This document shows, piece after piece, positions 4,725 to 22,575 of a DNA stretch of 43,652 nt; position 1 is the first letter of the stretch, and the number at the start of each line of letters is the position of its first letter. The notes beneath the pieces were generated by a model. The model saw nothing but the letters and a program-made list of their open reading frames with translations. It was not told the origin of the DNA and did no database searches. The stretch lies in the UHGV virus genome UHGV-0122704; one strand, written 5' to 3'. Made by a program: the position numbers and the translations under genes. The stretch is from a virus.

Positions 4725-4939
4725 GCAAGCAGGACATTTATGACGTATATAAGCGCCCTAATGGGTTTCTTTACCGGGTACCTCTATTTAGTCCACTGCA
4801 CGCCCTCGCAGAATTCTATGCAGAGGAGACTAGACTGTGGTTGCCGTCCAGTCACACAGTTGGCGGGGTGGTAATGCTAAGTTGTAGCACCCTTGTGGCC
4901 CGCAACGTGGTATTCAAGGATAGCGCATGCTCACAGTAG
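4721..4939 (+). CDS. Hypothetical early protein (72 aa)
   Basis: ATG 4721 in an ATGA overlap with the upstream ORF. Confidence 0.45.
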   Translation: MSKQDIYDVYKRPNGFLYRVPLFSPLHALAEFYAEETRLWLPSSHTVGGVVMLSCSTLVARNVVFKDSACSQ

Positions 4940-5271
4940 ACGAAACAGCGCTGCTGTGCTGGCGTCTGCTGGAAACGCAGGGCAAGTGCGGTTGCACTTG
5001 GGAAACATTCAAAGAGGTTCCTAATGAACTCAAGCAAATCGTGCCAGTTGAGCGTCGATTACTCCGAGTTAGAAAAGAGGATATTGGCACTGTTCTCACA
5101 ACCTATCGAGAGTACACTGAGTCTGCCGCGCGGAAGCTGCAAGAGCACATTGCATTCGATGTGGTTGCAGCACTACGGCGGAATGGATACCGCGGAGCTT
5201 TTAAGCAATTTAGAGCCGCAGTCCGCGCCTATTATAAGCAGCAACAACTCTCCGCGTGGTACGCACGCTGA
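4927..5271 (+). CDS. Hypothetical early protein (114 aa)
   Basis: ATG 4927 preceded by AAGGA; basic, helix-rich sequence. Confidence 0.45.
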   Translation: MLTVDETALLCWRLLETQGKCGCTWETFKEVPNELKQIVPVERRLLRVRKEDIGTVLTTYREYTESAARKLQEHIAFDVVAALRRNGYRGAFKQFRAAVRAYYKQQQLSAWYAR

Positions 5272-5311
5272 ACTCTTAGTGCATGACGAAGTTCTATTAA
5301 CTCGGGAGCAA

Positions 5312-6994
5312 ATGAAAATGCAAGAAACTAACACAGCACCTATCGAATGGAAAGTAGTGTTACCGGAAGGTGCAAACGCACTGCCGATTAAAGAATCAAT
5401 GTATTCCAGCGGTGATTACTGGACCCCGTTCCAGGACTTGCAAATGCAAGGGGAGGACCATCCCCACACTGAGGGTCCGCTGCAGGTGCTTATGGGTCTC
5501 CGCACTGTCAGTGCGCACACTCCAGGCTTAGAGGTGACTATAGGCGGGGCACTGCACCCAGAGTATCGCGAATCAACGATGACGCTCGGCCCGTTGCAAA
5601 AGGTGGACCTGTACCGGTCCGGAACTTTCTGCGAACTCTTTGAACCGGTGCGAATCACCATAGACAGCAAGTTCTGGGAACGCCGCCGCGACTTCTATGA
5701 GGGCGAGGATGTAGTGGTTGAGCGCGTAGTTGCTTGCGTCGAAGAATTCACAGGTTACAAGGTGCACAAGCAGGCCGTGCAGTTATTTGAGCGCATCATG
5801 CTTGCACCAGAAGAGCAGCAGCGCCGCTTATACACTGGCTACGATTACGGCCGCCACACCCGCGATGGCAACTTAGCTGCGCTGCTCATGAAGTTGCACG
5901 GCTTCGTAGTGTCTAGATTCGCCGTGCCTTTGGGCTTTGGTTTCCGCAACGGCGAACCTATCGTGATGCTGGGGCAGCCGCGGATGCACAAGGACTTCGC
6001 AGCAGTTACTGAGTACCGCTGCGTAGAGATGCGCGTAGGTAAGTGGCTCGCTAACTACTACGGAAATGGTGTGGACTTCCGCGATGCTATCGAAGACCTC
6101 AAGGCTATGAACGTAGACCCTACAACGTACCTGTGCAAGACCGAGCAGGAATGGTACGACGCCTACGAGAATGGCCCGGGTAGCTGCATGAGCGGGTACT
6201 CATTTGAGCATAGCTCTGTGCGGACGTACGCTACCACCAGCCACGGGTTGCCGGATAATGGGCTGCGCCTGTTCATCCAGTACACCGGGGAGCTGTTCGG
6301 CGACGATTTCGAAGTGCAGGCACGGGCAATCGTTAACACAGAAACTAACGAGTACGTCCGCGCTTACGGCAACGCTGCGGATGCAATCCTGCGGGGGCAT
6401 GGGTACACCAAAAACATTGAATGTCTCGAAGGGGTAATGCTGGCGCGAATACCGCACCCAACATACAACGGCGCAGTGCTGATGCCATACCTAGATAGCA
6501 GCCAGTGCGGCGTAGATGAGTATGGGGATGATGCCTTTGTAATCCGTGATGCTTATGAGTACGAGGCACAAGACTCAGAAGGATACATCTACGTAGGCAC
6601 TGAGTCTGCTCGGTGCTGCTGCTGTGAATGTCGCTACTCTGTAGATGACATGCAGGAGACCGCAGATGGTGATATGGTCTGCGACGGCTGCGTAGAAGAA
6701 GGGGATTTTGTGTACGTAGTTGGGCGTGATGGTCTGCATAATCGCTGGAGCTGCACCTGGTCTGATTACCACGACGCCTATGTATACGACGAGGACATAG
6801 AGCGCTGCGAAGTAGAGGGTGTAGTGCACGACCAAGAGGAACTGGTGTTTGCACAGGACCGGCAAGTGCTTATTGAGCACGCAGAAGAACACCCAGTGCA
6901 CGGGTTAATTCTCACTGAGCATGCAGCTGATTGCTTGGGAGAGAAGTACCTGGGCAACGATGAAGATGAAGAAGAAGCAGAGGAGGCAGCTTAA
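5312..6994 (+). CDS. Large hypothetical early protein (~560 aa) with a Cys cluster and an acidic C-terminal tail
   Basis: Track ORF 5024..6994 trimmed to ATG 5312 (GGGAG RBS), which avoids overlapping 4927..5271. Contains CCCCECRYSVDD...CDGC and ends NDEDEEEAEEAA. No family recognised. Confidence 0.6.
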   Translation: MKMQETNTAPIEWKVVLPEGANALPIKESMYSSGDYWTPFQDLQMQGEDHPHTEGPLQVLMGLRTVSAHTPGLEVTIGGALHPEYRESTMTLGPLQKVDLYRSGTFCELFEPVRITIDSKFWERRRDFYEGEDVVVERVVACVEEFTGYKVHKQAVQLFERIMLAPEEQQRRLYTGYDYGRHTRDGNLAALLMKLHGFVVSRFAVPLGFGFRNGEPIVMLGQPRMHKDFAAVTEYRCVEMRVGKWLANYYGNGVDFRDAIEDLKAMNVDPTTYLCKTEQEWYDAYENGPGSCMSGYSFEHSSVRTYATTSHGLPDNGLRLFIQYTGELFGDDFEVQARAIVNTETNEYVRAYGNAADAILRGHGYTKNIECLEGVMLARIPHPTYNGAVLMPYLDSSQCGVDEYGDDAFVIRDAYEYEAQDSEGYIYVGTESARCCCCECRYSVDDMQETADGDMVCDGCVEEGDFVYVVGRDGLHNRWSCTWSDYHDAYVYDEDIERCEVEGVVHDQEELVFAQDRQVLIEHAEEHPVHGLILTEHAADCLGEKYLGNDEDEEEAEEAA

Positions 6995-8055
6995 TGTTCT
7001 TGAATCCGCACGGGATTGATATGCAGCTGCTCTTGCAGATACTGCAAACGCACCGGCCTAGCTGGGGTAGCACTAAGTGGTTCGAGCCGCTGCTTATGCA
7101 GTCGCTACAGGCGCTGGGTAGTGGTATGCACTACGTAAAGGACAAGCACGGGAACTACTTCGTGCTGGTGGGGGACTCAGAGCAAAGTGACGTAGCGTTT
7201 ACGTCTCATCTCGACACAGTGGCACGACCAACCAGCGCTGCGCCGGACGTCGGCTGCACTAACAAGGGCGTGCTGTTCGTAAAGAATCCGCAACAAGCTG
7301 ACTGCTTGGGCGCCGACTGCGGCGCCGGTATCTACCTGATGCTGGAGATGCTGCGGCGCGGCGTGCACGGACGCTACTGCTTCTTCGTGGATGAAGAGGT
7401 AGGCTGCGAGGGTAGCGCTGCATCGGTCAAGGATGACTCTGGATTTTGGACTGGGGTCAAGGCGATGATTAGCTTCGACCGCCGCGGCGACGGTATCATT
7501 ACGCATCAAAGGTATATGCGCTGCTGCTCTGACACCTTTGCCAAGACCCTAGCAGAGCGCCTGGGACGCACGGAGCAGCACTTGCAGAAGGGTGTTTATA
7601 CTGACTCGGCTGAGTTCGTTGGCATCATTCCTGAGTGCACCAACGTCGGTGTAGGGTACATGCACGAGCACACCCCGGATGAGGTGCTGGACCTGAACAT
7701 ACTGGGCCAGGTGCTTGAGCGGGTACTACAAGACGGCACGTTCTCGCACCTCCCTATTGAGCGGGACCCGGCAGTAGCAGAGCCAGACCTATGCCAGTGG
7801 CTCGCTGCATCGACGCTCAGTTTACGGCAGCCGTGGGATATGCCGCCGGACGAGGACCCGCAGTTACTGGCCGCGTTCCGGGAAGTATCGCAGCTTTCTA
7901 AACAACAACTGGTTAGCTGGGTACAGGAGAATCCAGAGAAGGCGGCGGAGTACATAATGGTGTTCTCCGATTACGGCTTTAAAGAAGAACTGATTGAACT
8001 AGGCACCCGAGTCGTAGAAGACTGGGGCGGATACGATAATATTGTGGAGGGTTGA
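6994..8055 (+). CDS. Putative Zn-metallopeptidase-like protein (M20/M28/M42-like ligand pattern)
   Basis: Ordered candidate metal ligands HLD (TSHLDTV), D (GADCGAG), EE (FVDEEVG), D (FDRRGDG), H (MHEHT) match the co-catalytic zinc exopeptidase pattern. Motif-level inference only. Confidence 0.5.
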   Translation: MFLNPHGIDMQLLLQILQTHRPSWGSTKWFEPLLMQSLQALGSGMHYVKDKHGNYFVLVGDSEQSDVAFTSHLDTVARPTSAAPDVGCTNKGVLFVKNPQQADCLGADCGAGIYLMLEMLRRGVHGRYCFFVDEEVGCEGSAASVKDDSGFWTGVKAMISFDRRGDGIITHQRYMRCCSDTFAKTLAERLGRTEQHLQKGVYTDSAEFVGIIPECTNVGVGYMHEHTPDEVLDLNILGQVLERVLQDGTFSHLPIERDPAVAEPDLCQWLAASTLSLRQPWDMPPDEDPQLLAAFREVSQLSKQQLVSWVQENPEKAAEYIMVFSDYGFKEELIELGTRVVEDWGGYDNIVEG

Positions 8056-8057
8056 TT

Positions 8058-8504
8058 ATGTCTAAACTTTTTAAAGTAGGTGATAAGGTTCAGCGCATCA
8101 ATAAGATTGAAGGTAAGACCGTGCGCGGCGAGATAGTCACTAAGGGGCCTGGCCTCTATATAGACATCAAGCTAACCGAAGGCGCAGGGATTCATTATGC
8201 CGGGGATATCTATGGCGGCTCTGCCGACTTCTGGCAGCTAATCGAGGAGGCGGACGAGCTGCCACCGGTTCCGTCTAGTGTAGCATATTTAAACACTAAA
8301 CGAGACCCAGGAAACGACCAGCGGCTGGTATTAGAAAAGGACAGCGAGACTAACGAAGGACTACTATACATCGGAATAGTGCCTAGAAAAGGCAGCACCC
8401 GGGCAGAGCGAGAGATTGGTATTAATATGAGCCCCGATTCAGCCCTGCAGTTGGCACATGACATTCGTCGAATGGCTATGAAAGTTAAGCGAGAGATTCA
8501 GTAA
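8058..8504 (+). CDS. Hypothetical protein (148 aa)
   Basis: ATG 8058 preceded by GGAGGG; track start TTG 8052 is a less likely alternative. Confidence 0.5.
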   Translation: MSKLFKVGDKVQRINKIEGKTVRGEIVTKGPGLYIDIKLTEGAGIHYAGDIYGGSADFWQLIEEADELPPVPSSVAYLNTKRDPGNDQRLVLEKDSETNEGLLYIGIVPRKGSTRAEREIGINMSPDSALQLAHDIRRMAMKVKREIQ

Positions 8505-13756: not shown

Positions 13757-14191
13757 ATGTCGATGTGTATTGACCACGGGTATAACAAATGCCTTAACAA
13801 GAACGGATACCGCCGGGCATGGTATAAGCCGACCAGGCGATTGGAGCTGCTGCATCGGGTGGTGTATGCTGAGCATAACGGGCTGGATATAAGGGCGCTG
13901 GCTGGCCTGTCTGTTAGACATACCTGCGATAACCCCAGGTGCATTAACCCTAAGCACTTAGTATTGGGAACGCATATGGATAATATGCGGGACCGTGCAG
14001 AGCGCGGAAGGAACCCAGATGTGCGTGGGGATAGGAACCCAAAAGCGCAGTTAACTTGGGATGCTGTGCAGGATATCAGGGATAACTATATCCCATACAA
14101 GAAAGGTATGCGGCAACACTTTGCTAATAAGTACGGTGTAGGTGTACATGTAATTAGTGACGTAATAAGTAACAGGAGCTGGAATGCCTAA
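13757..14191 (+). CDS. HNH homing endonuclease (HNH_3-type)
   Basis: LHRVVYAEHNG...HTCDNPRCINPKHLVLGTHMDNMRD; RBS AAGAGGA. Confidence 0.85.
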   Translation: MSMCIDHGYNKCLNKNGYRRAWYKPTRRLELLHRVVYAEHNGLDIRALAGLSVRHTCDNPRCINPKHLVLGTHMDNMRDRAERGRNPDVRGDRNPKAQLTWDAVQDIRDNYIPYKKGMRQHFANKYGVGVHVISDVISNRSWNA

Positions 14192-20106: not shown

Positions 20107-22575
20107 ATGATTAGCGCCCTGAATACGGTTGTAGTACCAGAGGAAGCACTGGTGAAACGCCAGCTGGAGCTTGAAGAGACCTATAAGATTCGCGGAATCG
20201 AGCGGGCACGTAAGCTGATTACGGACGCATTGCAGAACGGTGGGATTATGAACCTGCCGATGACGCAGCGTATGCTCACCTCGGCATATGAGGTGGCCGC
20301 CGCCGCTATCGATGAGATGCGAAATGTAAAAGCCCCGGGCATTGGCGGTAAGTACCGCCGGTTCCTGCGCTTAGTCCCCTTGGATGTCCTGACCACCCTG
20401 AGCCTATGCACAATGTTTGAGGCATTTAGCGTAGCTCCTGGCGAGTCCGCTAGCCGCCGCCAGACTGCACAGGCGGTAATGTCCGCGCTGGGCCGGAACG
20501 TACAATCGGAACTGCTGGCCCTGCAGTTACGCAACGTGGCTCCGGCGTACATGGACCGTGTGTACGAGTACCTTACGGAGCGTAAGACCAAGTCTCCCAC
20601 GCACATCCTGCGTACGCTGCGGGCCAGTGCTGAGAACGTGCACTATGGGCACGAGCCATGGACCAACTCCCAGAATATCTCAGTAGGTCGGCTGCTATGT
20701 GCCGCGGTGTTTGAGACTGGCCTGTTCCAATGGAAGAACTGTAGTGGGAACCTGAGCATGCTCTACCCGGCTGACGATGTTATGGAGGCCTTCCAGAAAC
20801 TGGTAGAGTCCGCTGATACCGTAACCATGAAGCCGCCTATGCTGGTGCCACCGGTACAGCACACCACTATGTGGGATGGCGGGTACCTTACCCCCATCGA
20901 CAATCGCGGGACCTATCACAACTCGCACATCGACCGCGCGCGACTCCGTGAAGTAGCAGAAGCATTCAAGTCCGCGGACGGCATCAAAAAGGCGCTTAAT
21001 AAGGCGCAGGAAACCCCATACCGTATTAATAAGCGCATACTGGAACTGGTGCAAGAAGCACGGGCCCTGGGTATTGGGGTGGGCATGCCCCGCTCAGTAC
21101 CAGAGCCTAAACCGGAGTGGTACTTGGATGGAGTACCAAAAGAGAACTACACCGAAGAAGAACTGGACCGCTTCGGTGAGTGGAAGACGCGCATGTCCCT
21201 ATGGTACAGCGCAGACCGTAAGCGTGTGTCACAACTACGCAGCCTGTTGACCACGCTGGAAATGGCGGAGGAATTCAAAGATGAGAAAGCCCTGTACTTC
21301 CCGACTTGTGTGGACTGGCGCTACCGCCTGTACTTCAAGTCCTCGCTGCATCCCCAAGGTTCTGATTTGCAGAAAGCCCTTCTTGAATTCGGACGTGGCA
21401 AGCCTCTGGGAGAGCGCGGACTTTTCTGGCTTAAAGTGCACGTCGCCACTTGCTTTGGTTATGACAAAACCCTATTCGAAGACCGTGCAGCTTGGGTTGA
21501 TGCGAACTATGCAGAGATTGAGAGGCTCGCGGATTCTCCTCTTGATGCCCCTGCTTTTTCCTCTGCGGATAGCCCCTGGTGCCTGCTGGCCGCCGCTATC
21601 GACTTGGTTAATGCGGTTCGTTCTGGATGCCCAGAAGAGCATATTAGCCGAATCCCAGTTGCTATGGACGCTACAAACTCAGGTGGACAGCATCTCTCAG
21701 CGCTCCTGAGAGACCCTGTGGGCGGACGCTTGACGAACCTGTACTGGGAGGGTAATGATAAGAAAGCGGACCTGTACATGGACGTGAAGCGCCGTACGGA
21801 CGAGAAGGTGATACTGGACCTGGACAAGGAGGATTTCGTTATCCAGAGCACGTACTGGAGAGAGAACGAAATCACCCGCAGCATGACCAAGCGCCCTAGT
21901 ATGACCTACTTCTACAGCGCCACTGTGCGCAGCTGCAGCGACTACATCTTCGAAGGCGCTTGCGCTGAGGGGTACGAGGGTACTGAGACTAACAGTCTGT
22001 GGAACTTGTCATGCTACCTGGCTCCGCGTATGCGCACTGCTATCGAGGAGGCAAACCCAGCCGCAGCCGCAGTTATGGGGTACTTGCAGAACCTCGCTAG
22101 GCGTGTACCGGCAAGCCAGCATCTGCAGTGGTATACGCCGCTGGGTGGGCTCGTAATGAACCGCTACACGCAGCGTGAAGAAGTGCGCGTACGTATTGAC
22201 TGCATGAACCTATCAGCGGTACTGGTACACAACCGGGACTTCAAAACTTGCAACAAGCGCAAGGCAGCCTCCGGGATTGCCCCGAACTTTGTGCATAGCC
22301 TGGACAGTACGCACTTGATGATGGTGCTCTGCGCTGCGGAGGGTCTGGATATTGTGCCTATTCACGACTCGCTGGCTACTCACGCAGCTGACGTTGACGC
22401 TATGCATAGGCACATCCGTGAGCAGTTTGTGCGCCTGTATGAAGAGAATGACCTGCTTGGCGACATTACTCGCGCAGCAGCAGCAGCCGGGGCAGACTTG
22501 ACGGACCTGGACATGCCGGAAGTGGGCACTTTGGACATCCGGCAAGTGCTAGAATCCCCGTTCTTCTTCTGCTAA
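20107..22575 (+). CDS. Single-subunit DNA-dependent RNA polymerase (T7-like)
   Basis: Motif A VAMDATNSGGQHLSALLRD, motif B RSMTKRPSMTYFYSAT and motif C IHDSLATH correspond to the T7 RNAP catalytic motifs; RBS AAGGAGA. Confidence 0.95.
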   Translation: MISALNTVVVPEEALVKRQLELEETYKIRGIERARKLITDALQNGGIMNLPMTQRMLTSAYEVAAAAIDEMRNVKAPGIGGKYRRFLRLVPLDVLTTLSLCTMFEAFSVAPGESASRRQTAQAVMSALGRNVQSELLALQLRNVAPAYMDRVYEYLTERKTKSPTHILRTLRASAENVHYGHEPWTNSQNISVGRLLCAAVFETGLFQWKNCSGNLSMLYPADDVMEAFQKLVESADTVTMKPPMLVPPVQHTTMWDGGYLTPIDNRGTYHNSHIDRARLREVAEAFKSADGIKKALNKAQETPYRINKRILELVQEARALGIGVGMPRSVPEPKPEWYLDGVPKENYTEEELDRFGEWKTRMSLWYSADRKRVSQLRSLLTTLEMAEEFKDEKALYFPTCVDWRYRLYFKSSLHPQGSDLQKALLEFGRGKPLGERGLFWLKVHVATCFGYDKTLFEDRAAWVDANYAEIERLADSPLDAPAFSSADSPWCLLAAAIDLVNAVRSGCPEEHISRIPVAMDATNSGGQHLSALLRDPVGGRLTNLYWEGNDKKADLYMDVKRRTDEKVILDLDKEDFVIQSTYWRENEITRSMTKRPSMTYFYSATVRSCSDYIFEGACAEGYEGTETNSLWNLSCYLAPRMRTAIEEANPAAAAVMGYLQNLARRVPASQHLQWYTPLGGLVMNRYTQREEVRVRIDCMNLSAVLVHNRDFKTCNKRKAASGIAPNFVHSLDSTHLMMVLCAAEGLDIVPIHDSLATHAADVDAMHRHIREQFVRLYEENDLLGDITRAAAAAGADLTDLDMPEVGTLDIRQVLESPFFFC

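Follow-up and report, generated by a model that had tools for sequence, protein, structure and literature searches.

Does the gene at nucleotides (nt) 6994-8055 of the virus genome UHGV-0122704 encode a metal-dependent peptidase and, if so, on what would such an enzyme act? The window, by which I mean the whole analysed stretch of 43,652 nt, is the complete genome of a KP34-like podovirus (Drulisvirus), and the gene in question is an open reading frame (ORF) that starts with ATG and codes for 353 amino acids (aa) plus a stop. It is the orthologue of KP34 gp11, a 'putative peptidase'. A preliminary description, made by eye from the letters of the DNA, had recognised in it the ordered ligands of the M20, M28 and M42 exopeptidases, with the caution that the match could be a false positive, and had called such an enzyme unusual in the early region of a podovirus. 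In the present analysis the homology of the protein, its fold, the conservation of its catalytic residues, purifying selection on its gene and a conserved neighbourhood are established. I consider it probable that the product of the ORF is a cytoplasmic two-metal (zinc-type) clan MH hydrolase, an exopeptidase that trims N-termini and is coupled to the product of the gene directly upstream, referred to below as the partner. The peptidase, the partner, the gene downstream of the peptidase and all features within them lie on the + strand of the window.

Ligand residues and their conservation

The five motifs of the preliminary description all occur in the ORF, in the order in which they had been listed: TSHLDTV at aa 70-76 (nt 7201-7221), GADCGAG at aa 106-112 (nt 7309-7329), FVDEEVG at aa 131-137 (nt 7384-7404), FDRRGDG at aa 161-167 (nt 7474-7494) and MHEHT at aa 223-227 (nt 7660-7674). 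Their conservation was followed in an alignment of 126 sequences, which spans the Thermus P23-45-like, Bacillus Sophrita, Cellulophaga Calle_1, Vibrio FE11 and Pectobacterium PhiM1 homologues. Invariant in this alignment are H72, D74, D108, E134, E135, D162, R163, D204, N217, H226 and E230, apart from one sequence that is gapped at H72 and D74, and the ligand set is retained down to approximately 26-35% identity.

The roles of these residues can be predicted from their counterparts in known enzymes. H72-L-D74 (7207-7215), kept in 125 of the 126 sequences with the one gap, would supply the His that is the first metal ligand, together with the Asp of the HxD motif, and aligns to the HMD of 3gb0 and 3rza. 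D108 (7315-7317), part of a GAD motif and present in 126/126, is the predicted bridging metal ligand and aligns to LGADDKAG of PepT-like proteins. E134 and E135 (7393-7398; 126/126), the predicted general base and a predicted metal ligand, align to GEE in 3gb0 and 3rza and to QEE in TET1. The putative fourth ligand, D162, stands at the end of a beta-strand (modelled as residues 157-164) beside the invariant R163 (7477-7482; 126/126). The predicted fifth ligand is H226 (7669-7671; 126/126), which forms H-T-x-x-E together with E230 and aligns to the His of 'GYEEIHT' in 3gb0; of the two histidines within MHEHT it is the conserved one, whereas H224 is not conserved. In comparisons with four other Drulisvirus genes, the ratio of nonsynonymous to synonymous substitution rates (dN/dS) is 0.04-0.08, i.e. 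the gene is under strong purifying selection.

Taken alone, the loose pattern H-x-D...D...EE...D...H is weak evidence, as 6.5% of composition-matched shuffles of this protein contain it; of 20,000 shuffles, none contains a stricter clan-MH-like pattern. It is because of homology that the ligand pattern goes beyond chance. A chance motif match, or a scaffold that is catalytically dead, could find support in the frequency of the bare ordered pattern and in the marginal Pfam score given below, and is nevertheless extremely improbable: the profile, fold and conservation evidence rejects a chance match and effectively excludes a dead scaffold. The caution about a false positive is thus removed by that same evidence.

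Family assignment and fold

The Pfam family Peptidase_M28 (PF04389/IPR007484) matches the protein with 23.0 bits against a gathering threshold of 21.3, residues 58-167 being aligned to positions 6-98 of the 193 in the profile. Among 73 members of the family, Pfam matches are to M28 in 46 cases (E <= 0.01), to M20 in five and to M42 in three. In a search of the PDB with the single sequence, Peptidase T 3gb0 was found at E = 0.0015, and a profile of the 73 homologues retrieved the PepT-like M20 tripeptidases 3rza and 3gb0 at approximately 1e-14 and the M42 enzyme TET1 at 6e-6. The AlphaFold2 model, calculated from the 73-sequence alignment, has a mean predicted local distance difference test (pLDDT) of 82.5 and a predicted template modelling score (pTM) of 0.80, with residues 1-260 mostly above 90. 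When compared with the PDB by Foldseek, this model gave 214 matches at E <= 1e-3, with PepT 3gb0 on top (1.4e-11), and nearly all of the best 50 of these 214 are M20, M42 or M28 enzymes; the similarity to deacylases and carboxypeptidases is nearly as high as that to PepT. An unrelated predicted fold, which the preliminary description had named as the result that would speak against it, is therefore not what structure prediction returned. Its reading of an M20/M28/M42-type fold and ligand set is borne out by the match to PHROG 4191 described below, the PepT-like profile matches, the Foldseek results and the conservation among 126 homologues. Membership of clan MH (M20/M28/M42) is indicated by the modelled fold, the order of the five ligands and the presence of both EE and HxD, and with it a metal-dependent hydrolase activity is predicted.

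The predicted catalytic domain covers 6994-7779 (approximately residues 1-262) and lacks both the lid of the M20 enzymes and the insert of the M42 enzymes. As D162 and H226 are only 64 residues apart, a segment modelled as a short beta-alpha-beta unit, there is no place for the M20 lid/dimerisation domain between the fourth and the fifth ligand; as only 36 residues, a beta-hairpin, separate H72 from D108, the PDZ-like insert of M42 is absent too. Where the lid would be, the family has motifs of its own, ITHQ(172), RCCS(176-179) and PECTN(213-217). Of the cysteines in these, C177, C178 and C215 are shared by the core family but replaced in the homologues from Thermus, Bacillus and Cellulophaga phages, and they are thus not essential for catalysis.

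With the three families the protein compares as follows. The M20B PepT-like tripeptidases (TIGR01883; 3gb0 from Bacillus cereus, 3rza from Staphylococcus aureus) carry between ligands four and five a lid of approximately 110-140 aa, which here is replaced by ITHQ...RCCSD and PECTN, and the window protein scores 16.6 bits against TIGR01883, whose cut-off is 274. The M42 TET aminopeptidases (PhTET1 2cf4, YpdE-like 1ylo, 3cpx) have the PDZ-like insert that drives assembly of the TET dodecamer, which is missing here. The M28 aminopeptidases (Aeromonas/Vibrio AAP 1rtq, Streptomyces SGAP 1cp7) are likewise single lid-less domains, with the ligands H, D, E, D and H and thus with Asp as the fourth. 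Strict membership of M20 or of M42 was rejected, as neither lid nor PDZ-like insert is present; for M28, the score is marginally above the gathering threshold, and the protein shares with this family a lone catalytic domain and an Asp in the fourth ligand position. In its N-terminal half the domain most resembles PepT (SHLDTV, the hairpin, LGADDKAG), and its C-terminal half aligns to M42 TET1 almost without gaps.

The remainder of the protein (7780-8052, approximately residues 263-353) is a helical extension that is poorly modelled, with a pLDDT of 36-74. This extension of approximately 90 residues varies by lineage, and the helix LVSWVQENPEKAAEYI within it recurs in very distant homologues: it was aligned in the peptidases of loci L012 and L011, and also in P0085, P0063 and P0105.

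Distribution and earlier annotation

By megablast, the peptidase ORF matched 244 phage records, 242 of them over at least 80% of its length. Nearly all are KP34-type Klebsiella phages (Autographiviridae, Slopekvirinae, Drulisvirus) at 90-95% nt identity, and most of the records label the gene 'peptidase' or 'putative peptidase'. Orthologues within Drulisvirus have 93-94% nt identity and up to 97.7% aa identity. PHROG 4191, 'peptidase', is matched end to end (E = 2.9e-155, residues 6-352 against positions 1-342 of 342).

The label of KP34 gp11 dates from 2011, when the original paper on this phage listed it as 'putative peptidase' (PMC3082699), and gp11 was afterwards counted among the conserved proteins of the genus in the Kp34likevirus paper (PMC4411677). 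In Phimunavirus, six ORFs are conserved in the early region and a peptidase (IPR007484) is the sole function that could be assigned to any of them; the PhiM1 orthologue was placed in that region (PMC6115819). KP34 gp11 (YP_003347662) and its orthologues in Drulisvirus, Phimunavirus (PhiM1 gp10) and Maculvirus (VP93-like) are the same gene, in the same position and with the same start/stop overlap, and the window protein of 353 aa does not differ materially from the 348 aa of KP34 gp11. The gene is therefore already known, and its long-standing annotation is correct at the level of the fold. The finding as first stated is not new, as the annotation as an (M28) peptidase is more than ten years old in KP34-like, PhiM1-like and VP93-like phages. 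Nor is the gene unusual where it stands, as the preliminary description had thought: it is conserved in at least three podovirus genera.

In annotated phages, tblastn detects the family in Drulisvirus, in the Phimunavirus of Pectobacterium and Dickeya and in the Maculvirus of Vibrio, and more distantly in Thermus P23-45-like phages, large Bacillus siphoviruses and Cellulophaga phages. The Thermus phage homologue is found near the genes for a non-virion RNA polymerase and an inhibitor of the host RNA polymerase, and that of Bacillus phage Sophrita one gene downstream of an ocr-like anti-restriction gene, both of which are early-type contexts. A large protein database contains 1,702 homologues at E <= 1e-3, many of them on podovirus-sized contigs of 40-45 kb and many from marine metagenomes. 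In marine phage contigs the family is abundant and lies near genes such as those for PhoH and thymidylate synthase. On plasmids it is rare, with a homologue in 7 of 72,556 records, and a motif-seeded scan of 185,579 species genomes gave only 24 loci. The genome and IMG/VR scans were seeded with two peptide motifs, so that divergent members are under-sampled in them.

This distribution bears on the possibility that the enzyme is a general scavenger, an auxiliary metabolic gene that turns host oligopeptides into amino acids for phage protein synthesis and has no specific target. The closest cellular relatives (PepT, TET and the M28 aminopeptidases) degrade peptides broadly, and the abundance in marine phage contigs beside PhoH and thymidylate synthase would fit as well. 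However, hosts already encode many broad peptidases, and scavenging leaves unexplained the consistent early or leading-type position of the gene, its occurrence on plasmids and its pairing, in both gene orders, with one specific gene. I consider this explanation quite unlikely.

The upstream partner gene

The partner gene, as listed, occupies 5024-6994 and codes for a KP34 gp10-like protein of 656 aa, which belongs to PHROG 6980, has no known function and ends in a stop codon that overlaps the start of the peptidase gene. No match to the partner protein was found in Pfam, in NCBIfam, in PADLOC or among PDB sequences. From the ATG at 5024, its ORF overlaps a conserved gp9-like ORF of 114 aa (4927-5271) by 248 nt, and KP34 is annotated alike. 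Possibly the true start is the ATG at 5312 or that at 5318, behind GGGAG at 5304-5308; a start there would remove the overlap with the gp9-like ORF and agree with the layout in PhiM1, with the length of 557-561 aa that many gene calls give and with the low confidence of the model over residues 1-100.

The AlphaFold2 model of the partner is confident over residues 290-640. An exhaustive search of 1.84 billion representatives gave 301 partner clusters, which share approximately residues 320-580 of the window partner, and in 65 diverse members S387, C388, R434, Y448, Y489 and D491 are invariant. A zinc-ribbon-like set of four cysteines (Cys4: C531, C534, C553 and C556; 6614-6691) is 94-98% conserved in the same 65 members. 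The fold shows weak similarity to that of GNAT acetyltransferases, for which sequence profiles give no support. R446-A-Y448-G449-N-A451, at a strand-to-helix junction, may correspond to the coenzyme A-binding motif of the GNAT family.

Such a neighbour could suggest that the clan MH enzyme is a non-peptide amidohydrolase or deacylase (M20 ArgE-, DapE- or LysK-like), which cleaves an acyl or aminoacyl group off a small molecule or off a modified side chain of a protein, possibly off something that the GNAT-like zinc-ribbon partner makes or carries. A loose analogy exists in the LysW/LysK amino-group carrier system, where a clan MH hydrolase likewise stands beside a Cys4 zinc-ribbon protein with a very acidic C-terminal tail: LysK is an M20 hydrolase acting on the acidic C-terminus of the zinc-ribbon carrier LysW, and the peptidase has a weak NCBIfam match to LysK (E = 0.074). 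However, LysW has approximately 54 aa and a C-terminal Glu, unlike the partner with its approximately 560-656 aa and a tail ending in -AA, and the neighbourhoods that were looked at showed no ATP-grasp ligase. By sequence profile, the PepT-like tripeptidases are clearly the nearest relatives (1e-14), followed by the M42 and M28 aminopeptidases; the M20 deacylases need for substrate binding and catalysis the lid/dimerisation domain that is absent here; and the GNAT similarity of the partner is weak. A deacylase thus seems unlikely, less so than the scavenger discussed above.

The partner ends in an acidic tail, GNDEDEEEAEEAA (6953-6991), the last two residues of which are -AA. Across the partner family these tails cannot be aligned and yet are acidic, the last 30 residues having a net charge of -5 in the median. 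In 134 full-length representatives, clustered at 50% identity, 47 end in -AA where 0.74 would be expected (binomial p ~2e-70), and 70 of the 134 end in A. In the marine group, where the partner gene lies downstream of the peptidase, most partners have an acidic run followed by a terminal aromatic residue (EEEEY, DDDQY, DDDEF, NNDW), and in Vibrio phages the endings are -EE or -DE. A terminal -AA is reminiscent of the ssrA tag, whose end ClpX recognises, and acidic tails with a terminal aromatic residue recall the interaction tails of single-stranded DNA-binding protein (SSB) and T7 gp2.5.

It is conceivable, then, that the enzyme is a carboxypeptidase that processes the acidic C-terminal tail of the partner, and that trimming activates or stabilises the latter, for instance through removal of a ClpX-type -AA degron. 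The acidity of the tails and the excess of -AA endings would agree with this, as would the translational coupling of the two genes and their adjacency in most lineages; clan MH includes carboxypeptidases, such as CPG2, and the invariant R163 beside the fourth ligand could bind a carboxylate. Against it stand the variation of the endings by group (-EE or -DE in the Vibrio phages, aromatic in the marine ones), the existence of peptidases that have no partner, and the nearest relatives, which are aminopeptidases. I judge tail processing to be about as improbable as general scavenging. By sequence and fold alone, the deacylase, the carboxypeptidase and the scavenger are not separable from an N-terminal exopeptidase.

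Linkage of peptidase and partner

The order of genes around the peptidase is the same in KP34, PhiM1 and FE11, and in both Vibrio phage FE11 (BLASTP 4e-36) and PhiM1 the peptidase is directly preceded by a homologous large gene. The linkage was followed further with a profile hidden Markov model of the partner core, searched in two iterations against the small local ORF sets of loci retrieved with the peptidase. The partner was found in 30 of 42 IMG/VR loci outside Drulisvirus, adjacent in 28 and nearby in two, and four of the 12 loci where it was missed are cut at a contig edge; counted as peptidase clusters at 60% identity, it is present in 19 of 26. In most groups it stands immediately upstream of the peptidase, and in the marine group and Cellulophaga phage Calle_1 immediately downstream, the matches in the marine downstream group having E-values of only 1e-4 to 1e-9 in the first round and of approximately 1e-31 to 1e-45 after iteration. 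In the reverse direction, six of six loci retrieved with the partner contain a peptidase homologue; in five of them the two genes adjoin, and in the sixth three small ORFs lie between them.

The pair was also seen in elements unlike the window. On the metagenomic contig L092 (1927-4960) its neighbours are genes for an ArdA-type anti-restriction protein and an SNF2 helicase, and on the metagenomic contig L012 (294-3531) NinX and DUF932 genes; neither contig is Autographiviridae-like, and both contexts hint at an early or establishment-phase role. The Sphingopyxis conjugative plasmid pMC4 (L096, 4363-6927) has it between ParB-like and toprim genes, near HEPN and Abi genes. The Methylobacterium plasmid pVL1_2 (L095, 1-8617) carries the pair twice in tandem, and ahead of these copies stands a third partner-like ORF, which is cut by the edge of the retrieved stretch. 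An adjacency that survives both inversion of the order and transfer between types of element is good evidence of a functional link.

Two more familiar identities were considered and rejected. The peptidase is not a typical gene of plasmid leading regions, given its 7 occurrences in 72,556 plasmid records, and a paper on anti-defence genes of leading regions mentions no peptidase. It is not a component of a known defence system either, as no PADLOC model matched the peptidase, the partner or the downstream protein. Among 390 retrieved proteins no fusion of partner and peptidase (Rosetta stone) was found. Peptidase and partner together look like a two-gene module, of which, as of a selected -AA tail, no description was found in the searchable literature.

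In some homologues the peptidase stands alone. In Bacteroidota and relatives (L099, L101, L104, L107, L108, L111), peptidases of approximately 260 aa consist of the catalytic domain only, have no partner and are in some cases duplicated. These short bacterial forms would agree with a link between the C-terminal extension and the partner. On a marine contig of approximately 57 kb (L009, 7059-9080), a RimB-like (PF05618) gene precedes the peptidase homologue at a distance of 544 nt, an ORF of 186 aa lies between the two, and genes for thymidylate synthase and a family-B DNA polymerase are nearby; the partner gene was not detected there.

Proposed function

From its position, the gene would be expressed from the left arm, which is transcribed by the host RNA polymerase, just before the primase and helicase genes. 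By alignment with the M20, M28 and M42 enzymes, two metal ions would be bound by H72, D108, E135, D162 and H226 and would activate the water that bridges them, with E134 as the predicted general base. An aminopeptidase-type exopeptidase, which trims the N-termini of peptides or proteins at an open, lid-less active site, is the most likely activity because the nearest relatives (PepT-like, M42 TET and M28) remove N-terminal residues and because there is no lid. The enzyme may work with the partner protein or on it, and not as a free-standing housekeeping enzyme, since this one uncharacterised gene adjoins the peptidase in most lineages. The identity of the metal, the polarity of the exopeptidase, its substrate and its physical coupling to the partner are what I infer here.

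Several observations weigh against this proposal. The register of D162 relative to the fourth ligand of TET1 (M42) is ambiguous by 2-3 residues, and the Pfam match to M28 is marginal and restricted to the N-terminal half of the protein. The partner is not adjacent to the homologues of Thermus and Bacillus phages and to many of those in Bacteroidota; as partner-less homologues exist, the enzyme can function without it, and the link is not obligatory. In addition, a full-text literature search returned annotations only and no functional, biochemical or genetic study of any family member.

Gene junctions and genome setting

The junction between partner and peptidase was read directly from the sequence (6980-6996): a ribosome-binding site (RBS), GAGGAGG at 6980-6986, is followed by the TAA of the partner at 6992-6994 and the ATG of the peptidase at 6994-6996, the two codons sharing one A (TAATG). 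KP34 is annotated with the same overlap, the end of gp10 and the start of gp11 both being at 5497. Downstream, a KP34 gp12-like gene (8058-8504; approximately 148 aa, PHROG 4317, function unknown) probably starts at the ATG at 8058, 2 nt past the peptidase stop and behind GGAGG at 8047-8051; it is conserved in KP34 and PhiM1. Because of the TAATG overlap, the RBS and the 2-nt gap downstream, the partner gene, the peptidase gene and the downstream gene form one tightly packed and probably translationally coupled run. In some related phages (records VLCpiA1g and P12L), an HNH gene is inserted between partner and peptidase.

The window as a whole has a phiKMV-like layout, with small genes at the left end followed by primase, DnaB-like helicase, DNA polymerase, exonuclease, phage RNA polymerase and structural genes. 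The peptidase gene lies upstream of both the primase gene and the phage RNA polymerase gene (20107-22575), and as in KP34 it stands between gp10 and the primase. An HNH homing-endonuclease-like ORF (13757-14191, + strand) follows the DNA polymerase gene.

Implications

A wider reading, possible though rather doubtful, is that of a mobile two-gene module, expressed early and spread over several phage families and a few plasmids, in which the lid-less clan MH enzyme acts on or with a GNAT-like, Cys4, acidic-tailed partner whose tail would be selected to end in -AA or, in marine phages, in an aromatic residue. Such a module could work by trimming the tail of the partner and thereby controlling a C-degron or an SSB-like tail, by a carrier chemistry like that of LysW and LysK, or by remodelling protein termini so that host proteins are redirected to Clp proteases, as a means of host takeover or of counter-defence.

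The gene is among the few in the early region of therapeutic Klebsiella podoviruses whose chemistry can be predicted, and its putative catalytic residues are clean targets for mutagenesis. The pairing, across divergent phages and two plasmids, with one partner family, of which many members end in a strongly selected acidic -AA C-terminus, would make a defined and testable two-gene system of what looked like an isolated peptidase.

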